Below are positions 1 to 4,305 of a stretch of 4,305 bases of DNA, piece after piece. Origin of the DNA: a virus (lineage: Duplodnaviria > Heunggongvirae > Uroviricota > Caudoviricetes); IMG/VR virus record IMGVR_UViG_2531839207_000033, one strand, 5' to 3'. Below the pieces are notes generated by a model. That model did no database searches, was not told the origin of the DNA, and was given only the letters and a program-made list of their open reading frames with translations. Positions within the stretch are counted from its first letter, which is position 1; every line of letters starts with the position of its first letter. The translations under genes were made by a program, and so were the position numbers.

Positions 1-100
1 TATTCTGCCGTTATGGAATACTGACATTGATTCACGGCCTGGCTTAACGATAACCAGACTGAGTTCCGGTACCAGAACAGGTCGAAGTAATACCCGCACG

Positions 101-373
101 TTACCTCCAGATGCGTTGCTGATATGTGCGGGACGGACGCGGCGGGCGTTCGGAATAAGGGAGCCTGACGGAAATTATCCAGCGTCGGAAGTCAGGACTG
201 AGGCCTTTCTGAAACTGGTATCCACGTCTGCGGTAATTCTGAATCAGCCACTCGGCCTGTTCTTCAGTGCATTGGTCATGCTGGTACCAGTCATATTTGA
301 ATGCGTGAGAGCGCCGTCCGTGTCTGCTGGCAGGGTCGGCATCAGAATTGTGGTGTTTGGTATTGTGCGCCAT
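101..373 (-). CDS. Small basic hypothetical protein (about 90 aa from the ATG at 373; the listed 117-aa ORF begins at a TTG at 454 that overlaps the terminator T-tract)
   Basis: Minus-strand ORF 101..454 is open throughout; the first in-frame ATG is at 373..371 (MAHNTKHH...). The composition is protein-like (W/Y/D/E/H/Q rich, e.g. KYDWYQHDQCTEEQAEWLIQNYRRRGYQFQ), whereas the overlapping plus-strand frame (open 2..487) is R/V/G/A/S-rich, typical of an antisense frame. No family recognised. Only a weak Shine-Dalgarno (GAGA) precedes the ATG. Confidence 0.4.
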   Translation of the reverse strand: MAHNTKHHNSDADPASRHGRRSHAFKYDWYQHDQCTEEQAEWLIQNYRRRGYQFQKGLSPDFRRWIISVRLPYSERPPRPSRTYQQRIWR

Positions 374-445
374 CGGTTGTCTCTGCTGGCGCAGCAGGTG
401 CCAGTTGTTCAGGCTGGCGTGTGGATTGTAAACCAGAATGCCAGG

Positions 446-471
446 AAAAAACAAAACCCGCGAAGCGGGTT
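446..471 (-). terminator. Rho-independent terminator of the restriction-modification operon
   Basis: Plus strand 455..471 is AACCCGC-GAA-GCGGGTT, a perfect 7-bp stem with a 3-nt loop. Read on the minus strand the hairpin is followed directly by TTGTTTTTT (454..446). It lies 72 nt downstream of the endonuclease stop at 544. There is no T-run after it on the plus strand, so it is orientation-specific for minus-strand transcripts. Confidence 0.6.
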
Positions 472-543
472 AGTAAAAATGTACTGAAGTCAATGACGTG
501 CCATCACAGTTAAAATATGACAGACTCTATTTACGTAGAGATG

Positions 544-1422
544 TCAGACTGCAAGATCCAAGGGAAGATCAGAAATATCCTTTAATCTTTTACCATTAAC
601 CATCACGGAAAGCATGTCAGCTGCATCGCTGAGCCCCAGTATTTCAACTGCTGATATAAGTTCATAAAGCGCAAAATGATACACGCAATCTATATCACCA
701 GTACCAAGAGCAATAGACGCCAGACGACTTGGAGTAGGCTCAGCAGTAACAACCATTACATGAGGGAGATTTCCCTTACGGTTGCGAATAAGATTTAATG
801 CCTCAGAACGAGCATTCTGGGCCCGGTCGCTTCTTATTGTCCATTTGCAGGAAATACTTGCGTGTAATATTGGTTTCCCACCATTCGAACTCCTGAGAGC
901 TGACATGCGGGTAACAGAATCATCCACCAGTAATTCAGGACTGTTGATAACTTGATCACATTCAGGTTCTCTTTCAACAATAATATCTGGTGAAATCGTA
1001 TAATCACTCCCCAGTGCAGCAGCTAGCTGAGGATTACTTTTTGCAGCACTATCCAATGCTATAAGATGGGCATATTGTTCATATTTAGCTATCTCTAATC
1101 TGTTTCTACCAGAAACCTGATGTACATTCCATTTTCCAGGGCGTAAGTGGCTGAGTTTAAAAAAGGTTTTTTCTATAAACTCTGCGCAGATACTCTCAAA
1201 CTGATTACCAGATGTTTGCCCTGCAACACGTTCACCAATCGTTTCAGCCTGCAAGAAGCGAGCAATTTCTCTTGCTATAGCTTTACTGTTTTTGTTACTG
1301 CTATCTGCGTTACTAACAACTCCGGCAGTATTAATTGTGAGCGTATTCAGTAACAATTGGGCATGAAACTCCTTTCTGGCTTCAGCAAAACCAACTATGC
1401 TGTCAACCAAATCTCCATTCAT
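544..1422 (-). CDS. Type II restriction endonuclease, NgoMIV family (PD-(D/E)XK variant, CCGG-core recognising); 292 aa from the ATG at 1422
   Basis: Contains ...HASISCKWTIRSDRAQNARSE..., i.e. the S-x-K...E catalytic arrangement and the R-x-D-R CCGG-recognition motif of the NgoMIV/Cfr10I/Bse634I family, plus an upstream SPD acidic residue. Numbered from the ATG at 1422, the residues E76, D146, K193, R197, D199, R200, E207, and also D40 and R233, all sit exactly 6 positions after the NgoMIV residues as I recall them from the literature (E70, D140, K187, R191, D193, R194, E201, D34, R227). The ATG at 1422 is preceded by AGGA at 9-nt spacing and sits 13 nt after the methyltransferase stop. The ORF is also open for 45 codons further upstream (to 1557), overlapping the methyltransferase 3' end; that extension is judged non-coding. 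Confidence 0.85.
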   Translation of the reverse strand: MNGDLVDSIVGFAEARKEFHAQLLLNTLTINTAGVVSNADSSNKNSKAIAREIARFLQAETIGERVAGQTSGNQFESICAEFIEKTFFKLSHLRPGKWNVHQVSGRNRLEIAKYEQYAHLIALDSAAKSNPQLAAALGSDYTISPDIIVEREPECDQVINSPELLVDDSVTRMSALRSSNGGKPILHASISCKWTIRSDRAQNARSEALNLIRNRKGNLPHVMVVTAEPTPSRLASIALGTGDIDCVYHFALYELISAVEILGLSDAADMLSVMVNGKRLKDISDLPLDLAV

Positions 1423-1435
1423 TTCTGGATTTCCT

Positions 1436-2560
1436 TCAGGCTGCTTGACTATTCTTACTGATGTTATTCTTATACCGTCCCTGCAAAACTCCATACACAT
1501 ATTGTGCGATTTTTGCCGCAAATAGCGGTGGAACAGCATTCCCGATCTGCTTTGCAATCTCAGTTTTTGAACCGGTAAAAATGAAATTATCAGGAAAAGA
1601 CATTAATCTCGCTGCCTCACGATGAGTTATTGGCCGATCCTCTTCCGGATGTAAATATCGCCCTTTCTCCGGTTTGAAAAACTCAGTACGAATCGTTACT
1701 GAAGGTCTGTCCCACCACAGACGTCCAAACAAATCGGTCCCTCCAGATTTCTTTTTTAGCCAGCACGCCGGGGTTATATCAGGTCTTTTTTTCTGTAAAT
1801 CGAAACGGTTACCTCCTGGTGGAACCGCTTTATATCGCTCCAGAGAAACAGGTGTGGGATTACGCCCAAAATGTAAGTTCAGCGGAGGAAGTTCATTACG
1901 AATATCAGCTCCAACAGGAGCAGGTAAGTCACCAATTGCATCACGCGTACAGACCCATTCAGGCAAAGCGACATCCTTATCAGGGGAACGATGCGTTGGT
2001 GCTGGCGGGAACGCCGGAATACTATGCACATCGAAGAGTTCTCGTTTGATACCGATTGCTATCGTTCGTTTTCTTGTCTGAGGTACTCCATAGTCAGCAG
2101 TATTCAACACCATTGGATTAAGCAGAATAAAGCCCATGGATTTCGCTCTAAACGTAATGTCCGCAAACTCATCGCTTATCAGCAATCCGGGGACATTTTC
2201 CATGACGAACATACAAGCCCTTGAACGCTCAATGACATCCATATAAGGCTCCCACAATGCTCTTCGGTGATCACCATAACGATTCTTATTCAATAAACTG
2301 AATCCCTGACACGGGGGGCCACCTATGACCACATCAGCCTCAGGAACAGTATTGCTGGATGCCCACTCCTCAATATTTGCCTGAACTCCATGCAAACCAA
2401 AATTGGCATTGTAGGTATTTATAGCTGCAGCATTATTATCAATAGCAAGGATACTTTCAAAGTAGTCAGACATCTCTCCATGAAGAAAACCATAAGATAA
2501 TCCACCTGCCCCACAAAAGAGGTCTATCACTCTGAATTTATTTAATTCTTTCATCCGCAT
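1436..2560 (-). CDS. DNA (cytosine-5)-methyltransferase, the modification subunit of the Type II system; 374 aa
   Basis: Canonical m5C methyltransferase motifs in the right order: motif I DLFCGAGGLSYGF (AdoMet binding), motif IV GGPPCQGFS (catalytic Pro-Cys), motif VI FVMENVPGLL, motif VIII GVPQTRKRTIAIG, and C-terminal motif X QIGNAVPPLFA, with a long variable target-recognition region between VIII and X. The ATG at 2560 is preceded by GAGG at about 7-nt spacing. Motif I starts near residue 13, so there is no N-terminal regulatory extension. Confidence 0.9.
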   Translation of the reverse strand: MRMKELNKFRVIDLFCGAGGLSYGFLHGEMSDYFESILAIDNNAAAINTYNANFGLHGVQANIEEWASSNTVPEADVVIGGPPCQGFSLLNKNRYGDHRRALWEPYMDVIERSRACMFVMENVPGLLISDEFADITFRAKSMGFILLNPMVLNTADYGVPQTRKRTIAIGIKRELFDVHSIPAFPPAPTHRSPDKDVALPEWVCTRDAIGDLPAPVGADIRNELPPLNLHFGRNPTPVSLERYKAVPPGGNRFDLQKKRPDITPACWLKKKSGGTDLFGRLWWDRPSVTIRTEFFKPEKGRYLHPEEDRPITHREAARLMSFPDNFIFTGSKTEIAKQIGNAVPPLFAAKIAQYVYGVLQGRYKNNISKNSQAA

Positions 2561-2643
2561 CCATATGCCTCAGATTAATGTTGAGCGTCTTACAGGACGC
2601 GTAATGTTAACTGGGGCTTTCTCTATCTGCCTTTTGGTGTTCA

Positions 2644-2668
2644 TGCCTGAGGCAGACAGCCTCAGGCA
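2644..2668. promoter_or_regulatory. Perfect 10-bp inverted repeat (TGCCTGAGGC-agaca-GCCTCAGGCA): candidate operator or 5'-UTR stem-loop of the restriction-modification transcript
   Basis: Read directly from the sequence: arms 2644..2653 and 2659..2668 are exact reverse complements with a 5-nt spacer. It lies 2-4 nt downstream of the predicted transcription start of the promoter at 2678..2706. No flanking T-tract on either strand, so it is not a canonical intrinsic terminator. Confidence 0.5.
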
Positions 2669-2677
2669 CCCGCAGCA

Positions 2678-2706
2678 ATTCTACTTAACTCACGTCACCT
2701 CGCCAA
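2678..2706 (-). promoter_or_regulatory. Putative sigma70 promoter for the methyltransferase-endonuclease operon
   Basis: On the minus strand: -35 TTGGCG (2706..2701), a 17-nt spacer, then -10 TAGAAT (2683..2678). The predicted transcription start is near 2670, about 110 nt upstream of the methyltransferase ATG. It lies in the 178-bp gap between the queH-like stop (2739) and the methyltransferase start (2560). Predicted by eye only. Confidence 0.4.
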
Positions 2707-2738
2707 TATGAAATCAATCAGAAAGGTGATCCATAAAA

Positions 2739-3425
2739 TCACTCCTTCTCTTCTTTTCCGTAGTGGAGTTGGCCAATTTTGATAAGAGGGCGTCCCTGAG
2801 ATTTGCGGTGTAGATTGGTATCGCGCAGAGAATACACACAGCCACAATATTCCTGCTGATAGAATTTTTCGCGCTTGCTGATTTCAATCATACGGGACGA
2901 GCCGCCCTGCTTGCGCCAGTTATAATCCCAGTACACCATACCCGGATAATGCGCAACAGCTCGCCGCCCACACTCGTTAACCTGCTGCATATTTTTCCAG
3001 CGTGAAATGCCCAGTGAACTGCTGATCACACTGAAACCATTTTCAGCAGCGTACAACGCTGTCCGCTCAAAACGCATGTCAAAACACATGGTACAACGGA
3101 TCCCCCTCTCAGGCTCCCATTCCATTCCTTTGGCACGTTCAAACCAGTTGTCGGTGTCGTAATCAGCATCGATAAACGGCACGCCGTGTTGTTCAGCAAA
3201 GCGAATATTTTCATCCTTACGAATTAAATACTCTTTCTGAGGATGAATGTTCGGGTTGTAGAAAAAGATGGTGTAGTCGATTCCCGAGGCCTGAAGCGCC
3301 TCCATCACTTCACCGGAACATGGAGCACAGCAAGAGTGCAGTAGTAGTTTGTTTGCCCCGTTTGGGAGCTCCAATTTAGGCCGTTTGAAATCAGCAATAG
3401 TCATAAATATTTTTATTGGGGTCAT
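2739..3425 (-). CDS. queH: QueH-family (DUF208) epoxyqueuosine reductase-like iron-sulfur protein; 228 aa from the ATG at 3425 (alternative ATG at 3404 gives 221 aa)
   Basis: N-terminal [12 protein letters not shown] motif followed by FYNPNIHP, then [10 protein letters not shown] and EYCGCVYS. I recognise this Cys-rich pattern as the hallmark of the DUF208/QueH family (the non-cobalamin epoxyqueuosine reductase). The ORF is intact. Neither candidate ATG has a strong Shine-Dalgarno sequence. The assignment is from memory of family motifs, not a search. Confidence 0.65.
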
Positions 3426-3578
3426 GAAAATAGCACAGAGTGTAGCATCAGAGCAGGGCTATCGGGAATATATGTCTAAATCTGGTAATATCTGGTTTTG
3501 ACGCAAAGCGGACAACCACGCTGGCTCTACCCTGCGCCATGAAAATGTCAATTCACATCTGAACTAATGCTCTTTAAT

Positions 3579-4004
3579 CTAGTAACGTCTAAAATACCTA
3601 ACATTTCCTTGATAAAATGCCAGTACACGCTGCATAGCTTCGCTCTTCCGGCACTCGCGACAGATTATATTCAGGCGCCTGTCGTAGCGGCGTATTTCGC
3701 CGTCTGGTAACGACCAGATAAGGTCCGGATCAACCACAACCGGTTTCTTCAGTTTTGCCCTCGATAGTTTTTTGCGGGCATTTTGCCAGTCCTTACGAGC
3801 CTGTTCAGACGGGAATAACCCGTAACCAGAGTTGTATACATCGCCACTGACAACCAGCTCTCTGGTGAGAACGCTCATCAGATATCTTGTCGCACCTGTC
3901 TTGGCTTCCAGTTGCCGCAACGTCTCGCGACCGCTCAGACGTACAAGTTCAACAACCTGCCCTTTAATTTTTTCCCGCTCTTCTTGTGTAAATGCTTTTG
4001 CCAT
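3579..4004 (-). CDS. Hypothetical protein with a probable N-terminal winged-helix DNA-binding fold; 141 aa from the ATG at 4004
   Basis: The listed ORF starts at a TTG at 4019, but the in-frame ATG at 4004 (MAKAFTQEEREKI...) is preceded by GGAGG at about 6-nt spacing. The N-terminal segment KIKGQVVELVRLSGRETLRQLEAKTGATRYLMSVLTRELVVSGDV has a helix-turn-helix-plus-wing pattern. The C-terminal part contains CRECRK. No family confidently recognised. Confidence 0.5.
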   Translation of the reverse strand: MAKAFTQEEREKIKGQVVELVRLSGRETLRQLEAKTGATRYLMSVLTRELVVSGDVYNSGYGLFPSEQARKDWQNARKKLSRAKLKKPVVVDPDLIWSLPDGEIRRYDRRLNIICRECRKSEAMQRVLAFYQGNVRYFRRY

Positions 4005-4019
4005 AAGCGCCTCCGGCAA

Positions 4020-4305
4020 TCACTTTTCCGATACAACACGGCGGGAAGAATCAGTAATCTGTCGAACAATATCCCGGTGCTTGTTCAGCTCCCGCAGCGC
4101 GGCGCAGACTCGCTCCCACTTCTGAACCTGACCTTTTGCCCGGCGCAGCTCGCGGTTAGCCACATGCAGCGATGGTAAAATCAGCCCATCCGGATGCTTT
4201 CTGGTGAACAACGGCTGTGACTGCACTGTGACCGCCACACTTTCAGTTTTTATTTCTTCCTGTGTCGTCGTTTCCTGGACTGGTAACGCAACACCTGTTG
4301 GCTGA
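4020..4305 (-). CDS. 3' part of a hypothetical protein gene that starts beyond the right edge of the window (partial)
   Basis: The listed 72-aa ORF begins at a GTG at 4238, but the same frame stays open with no stop to the window edge (upstream in-frame translation QPTGVALPVQETTTQEEIKTES...). The stop TGA at 4022..4020 lies 15 nt before the ATG of the next gene, suggesting an operon. Function unknown. Confidence 0.4.
   Translation of the reverse strand, partial: QPTGVALPVQETTTQEEIKTESVAVTVQSQPLFTRKHPDGLILPSLHVANRELRRAKGQVQKWERVCAALRELNKHRDIVRQITDSSRRVVSEK

Follow-up and report, generated by a model that had tools for sequence, protein, structure and literature searches.

A type II restriction-modification cassette within the outer shell of a hok/sok locus in a lambdoid prophage of Escherichia coli

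Genes and features of the locus

The subject of this study is a 4,305-nucleotide (nt) stretch of viral DNA (Caudoviricetes; IMG/VR record IMGVR_UViG_2531839207_000033), referred to here at its full length as the window, and in particular the restriction-modification (R-M) cassette at its centre, which an earlier note on the sequence had described as a low-GC insert between GC-richer flanks. The cassette consists of a methyltransferase gene (M) followed by an endonuclease gene (R), and it is enclosed by the promoter, the mRNA leader and the terminator of a hok/sok addiction locus whose interior is missing. We are fairly confident that illegitimate recombination replaced the interior of a resident hok/sok locus with the M-R pair while leaving the outer hok shell in place, an account carried by the anatomy of the locus, its two junctions, the comparison with empty sites, the single origin of the fusion and the family of the encoded proteins. 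The features of the cassette and its shell are as follows.

455..471, minus strand: intrinsic terminator, AACCCGC-TTC-GCGGGTT then TTTTGTTTTTT, found by a terminator scan; the same hairpin closes the hok locus of E. coli IHE3034
473..543, minus strand: 71-nt tail past the R stop codon, with matches confined to cassette-bearing loci
544..1422, minus strand: R gene, type II restriction endonuclease of the NgoMIV family (PF09015), 292 amino acids (aa), predicted to cut GCCGGC
1436..2560, minus strand: M gene, C5 cytosine DNA methyltransferase (PF00145), 374 or 372 aa, depending on whether the ATG at 2560 or that at 2554 is the start
2567..2671, minus strand: retained 5' leader of hok mRNA, 105 nt (Rfam RF01794), 97% identical to the IHE3034 hok leader
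2568-2571, minus strand: mok Shine-Dalgarno GAGG, 7 nt ahead of the M ATG at 2560
2644-2668, minus strand: 5' tac/metastable hairpin, within the retained leader
2678..2706, minus strand: predicted hok promoter from a promoter scan, TTGGCG, 17-nt spacer, TAGAAT, now upstream of M-R
2567..2630, plus strand: promoterless sok antisense remnant; the sok promoter and first Sok bases were in the deleted mok region, and the 3' limit is approximate

Both proteins can be assigned to a family. R matches Pfam PF09015 over its full length (profile positions 1-275 of 275, E = 9.9e-127), and its residues 12-292 align with residues 5-286 of the NgoMIV crystal structure 1FIU (E = 1e-118), with the block ISCKWTIRSDRAQNARSE conserved and about 70% identity as counted from that alignment. 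M matches PF00145 over residues 9-353 (E = 4.6e-54), its matches in the PDB are C5-methyltransferases, and its translation shows intact catalytic motifs I (FCGAGG), IV (GGPPCQGFS), VI (ENVPGL), VIII (QTRKR) and X (GNAVPP). The two genes share an orientation, with M 13 nt upstream of R and an AGGA 9 nt ahead of the R ATG.

In naming the elements of the surrounding shell, we follow the plasmid R1 literature as summarised in PMC9841398. The Rfam model RF01794, which describes the 5' end of the hok transcript in 157 positions, matches 2671..2491 at 61 bits (120.5 bits in IHE3034), but it is truly aligned only at model positions 1-88, ending exactly at 2567. The transcript start implied by the promoter at 2706-2678 falls at about 2671, which is model position 1. 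At the other end, the former hok terminator now stands downstream of R, and the M start codon lies one base from the former position of the mok start. Missing from the window by comparison with IHE3034 are the codons of mok and hok, the dcb region together with its sok promoter, and the fbi element; the complement of fbi, CCTCAACGCACCC, stands just ahead of the IHE3034 terminator and is absent here. In plasmid R1, dcb is the element that contains the Sok promoter (PMC9841398). IHE3034 carries an antisense promoter-like site (TTGCCT-17-TAACCT) within mok codons that the window lacks, and a consensus scan of the plus strand found no promoter-like site in 2480-2566, although a weak fortuitous promoter could escape such a scan. 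What remains therefore contains no Hok reading frame with its mok frame, no tac/fbi leader and no sok gene with a promoter. Since the 5' tac end is kept and its pairing partner, the 3' fbi, is missing, the window holds one half of a co-adapted unit.

RefSeq annotates nothing under the retained leader in the records examined. Two further Rfam matches, to RyhB (448-505, E = 0.31) and DABA-DC-AT (2370-2495, E = 0.31), are weak, and we dismissed them as chance or terminator-driven.

The empty site and the junctions

The decisive evidence comes from genomes in which the cassette is absent. We joined the two flanks into a single query and searched 5,426 complete E. coli genomes, the collection to which all E. 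coli genome counts below refer. The gene order DUF968, hypothetical gene, hokD, queH, DUF977 was found in 665 of them, and the cassette occupied the site in 60, a distribution that bears out the horizontal acquisition proposed in the earlier note. In the best of these hokD genomes, IHE3034 (record L005), window positions 10-472 align with L005 1501-1970 at 85% identity and window positions 2567-4014 with L005 2258-3705 at 97.4%. Between these blocks, 2,094 bp (473-2566, 42.8% GC), comprising the M gene, the R gene and the 71-nt tail, stand in place of 287 bp (54% GC; L005 1971-2257). Thus the cassette is indeed an acquired segment, but it did not arrive by simple insertion, as the earlier note had implied, because 287 bp of a hok/sok locus were replaced in the process.

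A single pairwise alignment gives no direction, and the cassette form occurs in several serotypes, so one might argue the reverse: that the R-M arrangement is ancestral, its leader and terminator are native to it, and hok/sok entered most prophages later. We give this almost no credence. The leader in the window corresponds to only the first 88 of the 157 positions of RF01794, whereas hok loci have the full form, and the fbi partner that pairs with tac in intact hok loci is missing. The hok form outnumbers the cassette form by 665 genomes to 60, and a hok-type leader (query, window 2567-2700) is present in 3,603 of the 5,426 genomes, in up to 7 copies per genome. Finally, the homologous cassettes of Pantoea, Cronobacter and a second lambdoid-phage contig (L087) contain no hok leader. 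The replacement of a hok/sok interior by M-R remains the reading that fits these observations.

Both junctions fall within the short spacers (472..543 and 2561..2738) to which the earlier note had assigned them, and the alignment now places them at 472/473 and about 2566/2567. The left junction lies immediately 5', in the sense of the transcript, of the terminator hairpin, and homology to at least 37 independent hok loci ends exactly at 472. Sequence beyond that point is matched only by other cassette carriers (L001, L092, L128, L150, L162, L189 and strain A34). The right junction separates the mok Shine-Dalgarno from the M start; here the window reads ...AATCTGAGGC|ATATGGATGCGGATGAAAGAA and IHE3034 reads ...AATCTGAGGC|TCAATCCATGCTGAAC. 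The end of the leader, AACATTAATCTGAGGC, occurs in 120 viral contigs, 116 of which can be read downstream; 112 continue to a mok ATG 6-7 nt on, and 4 continue into the M gene. The mok continuations of those 112 contigs come in several allelic forms, some of which read CATATCTATGCG.

A further alternative is that the cassette travelled on an unrecognised small mobile element, such as an insertion sequence (IS), a miniature inverted-repeat transposable element (MITE) or an integron-like unit, that targets hok. In its favour, the hok locus of the K-12 prophage Qin was also hit, by relBE (PMC6379469), which suggests a preferred site. However, a repeat search at 473 and 2566 returned short scattered matches, of a size that is often due to chance, and no terminal inverted or direct repeats flanking the junctions; the window has no open reading frame (ORF) for a transposase or integrase, as the earlier note had also observed. 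We thus found neither the target-site duplication, nor the recombinase, nor the terminal repeats of a transposon, an IS or an integron cassette. Homology to other cassettes covers essentially the two ORFs only, and the relBE junction lies elsewhere in the hok locus, just ahead of the hok Shine-Dalgarno. A dedicated element is for these reasons extremely improbable, and illegitimate recombination is our preferred mechanism. An exact 10-nt direct repeat, ATGCCTCAGA, is present at 798-807 and 2565-2574, one copy spanning the right junction and the other inside R; it is probably fortuitous, and the partner is not at the left junction.

Base composition and the donor

The low-GC block that first drew attention to the cassette is real. 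All nine hand counts of the earlier note were reproduced, among them 31.7% GC at 2401-2460, 40.0% at both 661-720 and 961-1020, 55.0% at 61-240, 50.0% at 2881-2940 and 51.7% at 3661-3720. GC content is 52.2% over 1-487, 43.2% over 488-2738 and 48.8% over 2739-4305; by gene it is 41.6% for R, 44.3% for M and 48.2% for queH. With the bounds taken from the comparison, GC is 42.8% in the insert (473-2566), versus 49.5% elsewhere in the window (chi-square p = 1.2e-5). The dip is clearer still at third codon positions (GC3), at 30.0% in R and 36.8% in M versus 52.7% in queH, 49.3% in the DUF977 gene, 54.7% in the DUF1627 gene and 59.3% in the ORF at 101-373.

At the same time, composition alone is no proof of insertion, correct as the low-GC observation is. 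In the 44-kb context of the closest genome (L001), three other stretches of the same prophage fall below 45% GC, near the small terminase gene, cI/cro and int/xis, so that 43% GC is unexceptional in this phage, and it is the comparison between genomes that decides. The GC-richer flanks of the earlier note are themselves phage genes of a lambdoid prophage and not host chromosome. The three other low-GC stretches, together with a GC-only segmentation that misses the right junction, might suggest that the dip is ordinary mosaic heterogeneity of a lambdoid genome and involves no separate acquisition. We consider this highly improbable: the empty-site genomes show a discrete 2,094-bp replacement, which refutes it, GC3 falls by about 20 points exactly at R and M, and the cassette is found in unrelated genomic contexts of other genera.

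Where the cassette came from is a separate question. The nearest R proteins (84-89% aa identity) are found in the second lambdoid-phage contig, L087, in Pantoea, in Cronobacter dublinensis and in Cedecea, with 72-79% nucleotide identity between the cassettes. In L087 the gene order is Cro, CII, O, P, small gene, M, R, and DNA identity is 78.7% over 544-2565. Homology to these nearest relatives is essentially restricted to the two reading frames, from 539/546 to 2542/2565, and the 71-nt tail (473-543) has no homology to the Pantoea, Cronobacter and L087 cassettes, whose own homology ends at 539-546. The relatives' cassettes have 45-48% GC and their core-genome-side flanks 51-62%. Among 31 more distant homologues, R-gene GC ranges from 37 to 63% and is usually below that of the local context. 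A scan of species-representative genomes with the R protein gave 59-78% identity among the matches listed (Pseudomonas, Burkholderiales, Methylococcaceae and others); the Pantoea and Cronobacter relatives, absent among those matches, were fetched by exact protein look-up. A distant search of plasmids returned homologues of about 66% identity only (IncP-like and environmental plasmids; Neisseria) and no donor. In Cronobacter dublinensis (L088/L089 1-2248), the cassette has on its upstream side a separate 38% GC stretch with an AAA_15/AAA_21 ATPase, near core genes of 62% GC, a neighbourhood that looks like a defence island.

These data bear on the proposal of a direct and recent transfer from a low-GC or Neisseria-type donor whose genome is mirrored in the GC content of the cassette. 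The R family is named for a Neisseria enzyme, and homologues with an R-gene GC of 37-44% exist in Bacillota and Chitinophagales, yet the low-GC homologues reach just 59-64% protein identity among the matches listed. At the DNA level, N. gonorrhoeae matches a quarter of the query at 66.6% identity, and R is about 70% identical to NgoMIV. The closest relatives are instead those of the Enterobacterales and a lambdoid phage, and they carry cassettes of similarly low GC. Such a donor is therefore unlikely, and neither the lower-GC source nor the Neisseria-type source put forward in the earlier note is upheld. Because the relatives keep a low GC content inside surroundings of 51-62%, we read low GC as a trait of the cassette lineage; because R genes of this family usually lie below host GC, it fails to identify the donor. 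More generally, the low GC of an R-M cassette need not imply a low-GC donor.

Spread and age of the fusion

Fifty-nine of the 60 carrier genomes, belonging to several serotypes, share the cassette at 99.9-100% identity. The sixtieth carrier, strain A34, has the same fusion with both junctions, at 97.2% identity over window positions 453-2683, and its outer flanks differ: an extra small gene stands on the left, and a pair of beta-family and sce7726-family genes replaces queH on the right. The A34 promoter keeps TTGGCA-17-TAGAAT around an unrelated spacer sequence, and this conservation of the -35 and -10 elements despite a different spacer supports the promoter assignment. Compared with the window, A34 has 19 nucleotide but 5 aa changes in R, and 30 nucleotide but 10 aa changes in M; since the substitutions are mostly silent, they point to purifying selection on both genes. 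The exact leader allele of the fusion is confined to cassette carriers, the next-best allele being 97.8% identical. Taken together, the shared junctions and leader indicate that the fusion arose once, and it has since moved among lambdoid prophages, as a 2.2-kb module, by homologous recombination in conserved phage flanks. Of the recency that the earlier note proposed, only that of the spread is thus borne out, near-identical copies having reached 59 genomes, while the fusion itself, to judge by A34, is older. In the A34 prophage (L006 468-660, minus strand), the small RNA STnc100 of Rfam is matched at 120.7 bits downstream of Q.

The prophage setting

The remaining features of the window are phage genes that flank the hok site.

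1..99, minus strand: 5' part of a DUF968 (YdfU-like) gene, from the RefSeq annotation of L001; left flank, common to hok-bearing prophages
101..373, minus strand: small conserved prophage gene for a hypothetical protein of 90 aa (start ATG at 373), GC3 59%, no Pfam match
2739..3404, minus strand: queH, epoxyqueuosine reductase (DUF208; PF02677, E = 1e-65), outside the insert
3579..4004, minus strand: DUF977 (LygF/Ren-like) prophage gene, right flank
4020..4305, minus strand: 3' part of a DUF1627 (YdaW-like) prophage gene, right flank

Full-length matches to the window, at 98.5-98.7% identity, occur in 57 complete E. coli genomes, mainly of O157:H7, O111 and O103 strains. In the best match, O111:H11 strain 88.0502 (L001, 98.7%), it lies within a complete lambdoid prophage in which the relevant genes, all on the minus strand, run Cro, O-like helix-turn-helix replication protein, DnaC-like ATPase, DUF1627, DUF977, queH, M, R, small hypothetical gene, DUF968 (YdfU-like), RusA and Q antiterminator, followed by the genes for lysis, head and tail. 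At a distance of 13 kb lies the integrase gene, beside rspB, which in K-12 marks the region where Qin is attached. By this gene order, the window is the early-right accessory region of a Qin-type lambdoid E. coli prophage, between the replication genes and DUF968-RusA-Q. Of the 57 positions at which window and L001 differ, one (1909) is in the cassette, and the other 56 fall in 3738-3873 and 4128-4298, within the DUF977 and DUF1627 genes. These two patches look like recombination patches from another prophage allele, and the window therefore comes from a mosaic sibling of the L001 prophage.

Homologues of the gene at 101..373 stand beside DUF968 in IHE3034, A34 and the phages HannyBb and Tritos. 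The queH gene adjoins the hok site in hok and R-M forms alike, with the same protein (WP_000150294.1) in L001 and IHE3034; HannyBb has a counterpart at 92.9% identity, annotated as hypothetical. A tRNA-modification enzyme is thus carried as cargo by lambdoid prophages, and E. coli's own enzyme for the step done by QueH is QueG. In O157 strain 9000 (L214 8422-12299), the same integrase protein, WP_001206148.1, borders the tail and DUF1076 genes of a second prophage rather than rspB, which places the cassette-bearing prophage there in a tandem prophage array. A search of a phage collection with the whole window found no record with the cassette, only flanks at 38% coverage or less, and a distant search with the cassette alone gave two trivial matches and nothing else.

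Expression and function in the lysogen

What we infer is promoter use, the M start codon, the activity and specificity of the enzymes and their biological role. Because the early-right phage operon is repressed in the lysogen, R-M cargo at this site needs a promoter of its own, and the hok promoter may provide it. Translation of M would rely on the ribosome-binding site of mok, the ATG at 2560 lying seven nt and that at 2554 thirteen nt downstream of the Shine-Dalgarno; R would come after M on a shared mRNA that stops at the hok terminator. In the model for hok, loss of fbi leaves an open, translatable leader (PMC9841398), and, fbi being gone, the M-R fusion would be expected to be constitutively translatable. 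The R-M pair may then guard the lysogen against unmethylated DNA from outside and, as hok/sok does, put cells that lose the prophage at a disadvantage. In this sense, one addiction and exclusion module, hok/sok, would have been exchanged for another, a type II R-M system.

The predicted target sequence adds little to this picture. GCCGGC is absent from the window against 0.77 expected occurrences, too few to inform, and the prophage (L001 1-34370) contains 5 against 8.7 (mononucleotide) or 17.8 (Markov) expected. We considered avoidance of the site by the prophage and set it aside as uninformative, for the adjacent chromosomal flank is similarly low, with 1 site against 2.0-2.8 expected.

The leader could also expose the cassette to regulation in trans. 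In it, the region targeted by Sok and the ribosome-binding site of mok are still present, and most of the cassette-bearing genomes listed carry 1-6 further hok-type leaders (2-7 places per genome; two records have one), with 5-7 copies in O157:H7 carriers. Sok RNAs from these other hok/sok loci could pair with the M-R leader, lowering expression or directing cleavage by RNase III. We regard this as unlikely; if true, it would tie R-M activity to the presence of sibling prophages.

Several points weigh against our account or limit how closely it can be drawn. On the structural side, the left flank of the best empty-site genome, IHE3034, is merely 85% identical to that of the window. The right junction is defined only to within about 10 nt and could involve a microhomology of 0-6 nt, depending on the parental hok allele. 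When two breakpoints were fitted by likelihood to GC alone, the low block came out at about 425-3625 (log-likelihood ratio 13.9; maximum of the base-shuffled null 9.9); bulk GC thus recovers the left edge but, with queH and the 3405-3578 spacer being intermediate in GC, misses the right edge. No donor of either the cassette or the 71-nt tail was found in the collections searched. On the functional side, expression of M-R from the hok signals is drawn from their position, and we lean towards it, with clearly less confidence than we place in the replacement itself. The hok promoter scores only 9 of 12 consensus matches, and the M start is uncertain, RefSeq placing it at 2554 and the ATG at 2560 being a GTG in A34 (L006 ~6088). 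The predicted minimum-free-energy fold of the fused leader puts the mok Shine-Dalgarno region in a stem and is more stable than shuffled sequence (z = -2.9); the fold predictions neither support nor exclude a free Shine-Dalgarno. R-M activity and GCCGGC specificity, too, are predictions from homology.

Nonetheless, the locus makes a base-level case of a temperate phage trading hok/sok for a type II R-M system and, as the retained elements suggest, reusing a lysogeny-active promoter, a ribosome-binding site and a terminator. It should be a useful example to have annotated, given that the retained leader is unannotated in the RefSeq records examined, and the fusion could mark a prophage lineage in the Shiga toxin-producing E. 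coli serotypes that yielded the cassette here, O157:H7, O111 and O103. A type II R-M system of atypical GC in a prophage is ordinary in itself, and the general view of R-M mobility and prophage mosaicism is unchanged; what makes this a neat variant is how precisely a hok shell was taken over. We found no description of a hok-leader/R-M fusion in the open-access literature, an absence that is weak evidence given that scope.

Comparison with known systems

The nearest characterised R-M system is NgoMIV of Neisseria gonorrhoeae, whose endonuclease (R.NgoMIV, 1FIU) recognises GCCGGC. The homology of the window R to this enzyme is end to end, and both systems join the endonuclease to a C5 cytosine methyltransferase, with M ahead of R in the operon. 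Unlike NgoMIV, the system described here resides in a lambdoid prophage and not in the Neisseria chromosome, and its upstream control region is a hok leader and not a native one.

With the hok/sok loci (parB of R1; the hokD/hokW type of prophages), the window shares a homologous promoter, 105-nt leader and terminator, at 97% identity, but it has no toxin gene, mok, dcb with the sok promoter, or fbi: only the expression shell is left. As an accessory unit it resembles the morons and prophage defence hotspots of other phages, for it combines a predicted promoter, genes and a terminator at a place in the lambdoid genome whose content varies among relatives. It departs from the usual moron in that its cargo took over the promoter and terminator of a previous moron and brought none of its own. 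The DUF977-DUF968 region is a hotspot for cargo. Elsewhere, ImmA/IrrE genes (Tritos) and an acetyltransferase gene (Evi) lie near the hok locus, and the queH slot of A34 (L006 6587-8222) holds the 'beta family protein' and 'sce7726 family protein' genes on opposite strands.

The closest parallel is the relBE-hokD (relF) locus of Qin in K-12, a prophage of the same type with a hok locus in which foreign genes likewise disrupt the RNA control. Integration of relBE truncated the ancestral 70-codon hokD of Qin (PMC6379469). The MG1655 sequence (L213 4025-4289) is 98.9% identical to L005 1944-2207, a stretch that begins at the terminator and stops 14 nt short of the hokD ATG, with relE and relB upstream. 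The two loci are complementary in what they lost: Qin gave up the upstream half (promoter, leader, mok start and sok) and kept hok, fbi and the terminator, whereas the window lost the downstream half. A more general reading, though an unlikely one, is that the hok locus of Qin-type phages, hit by relBE in K-12 and by an R-M pair here, is a recurrent point of exchange for addiction modules.

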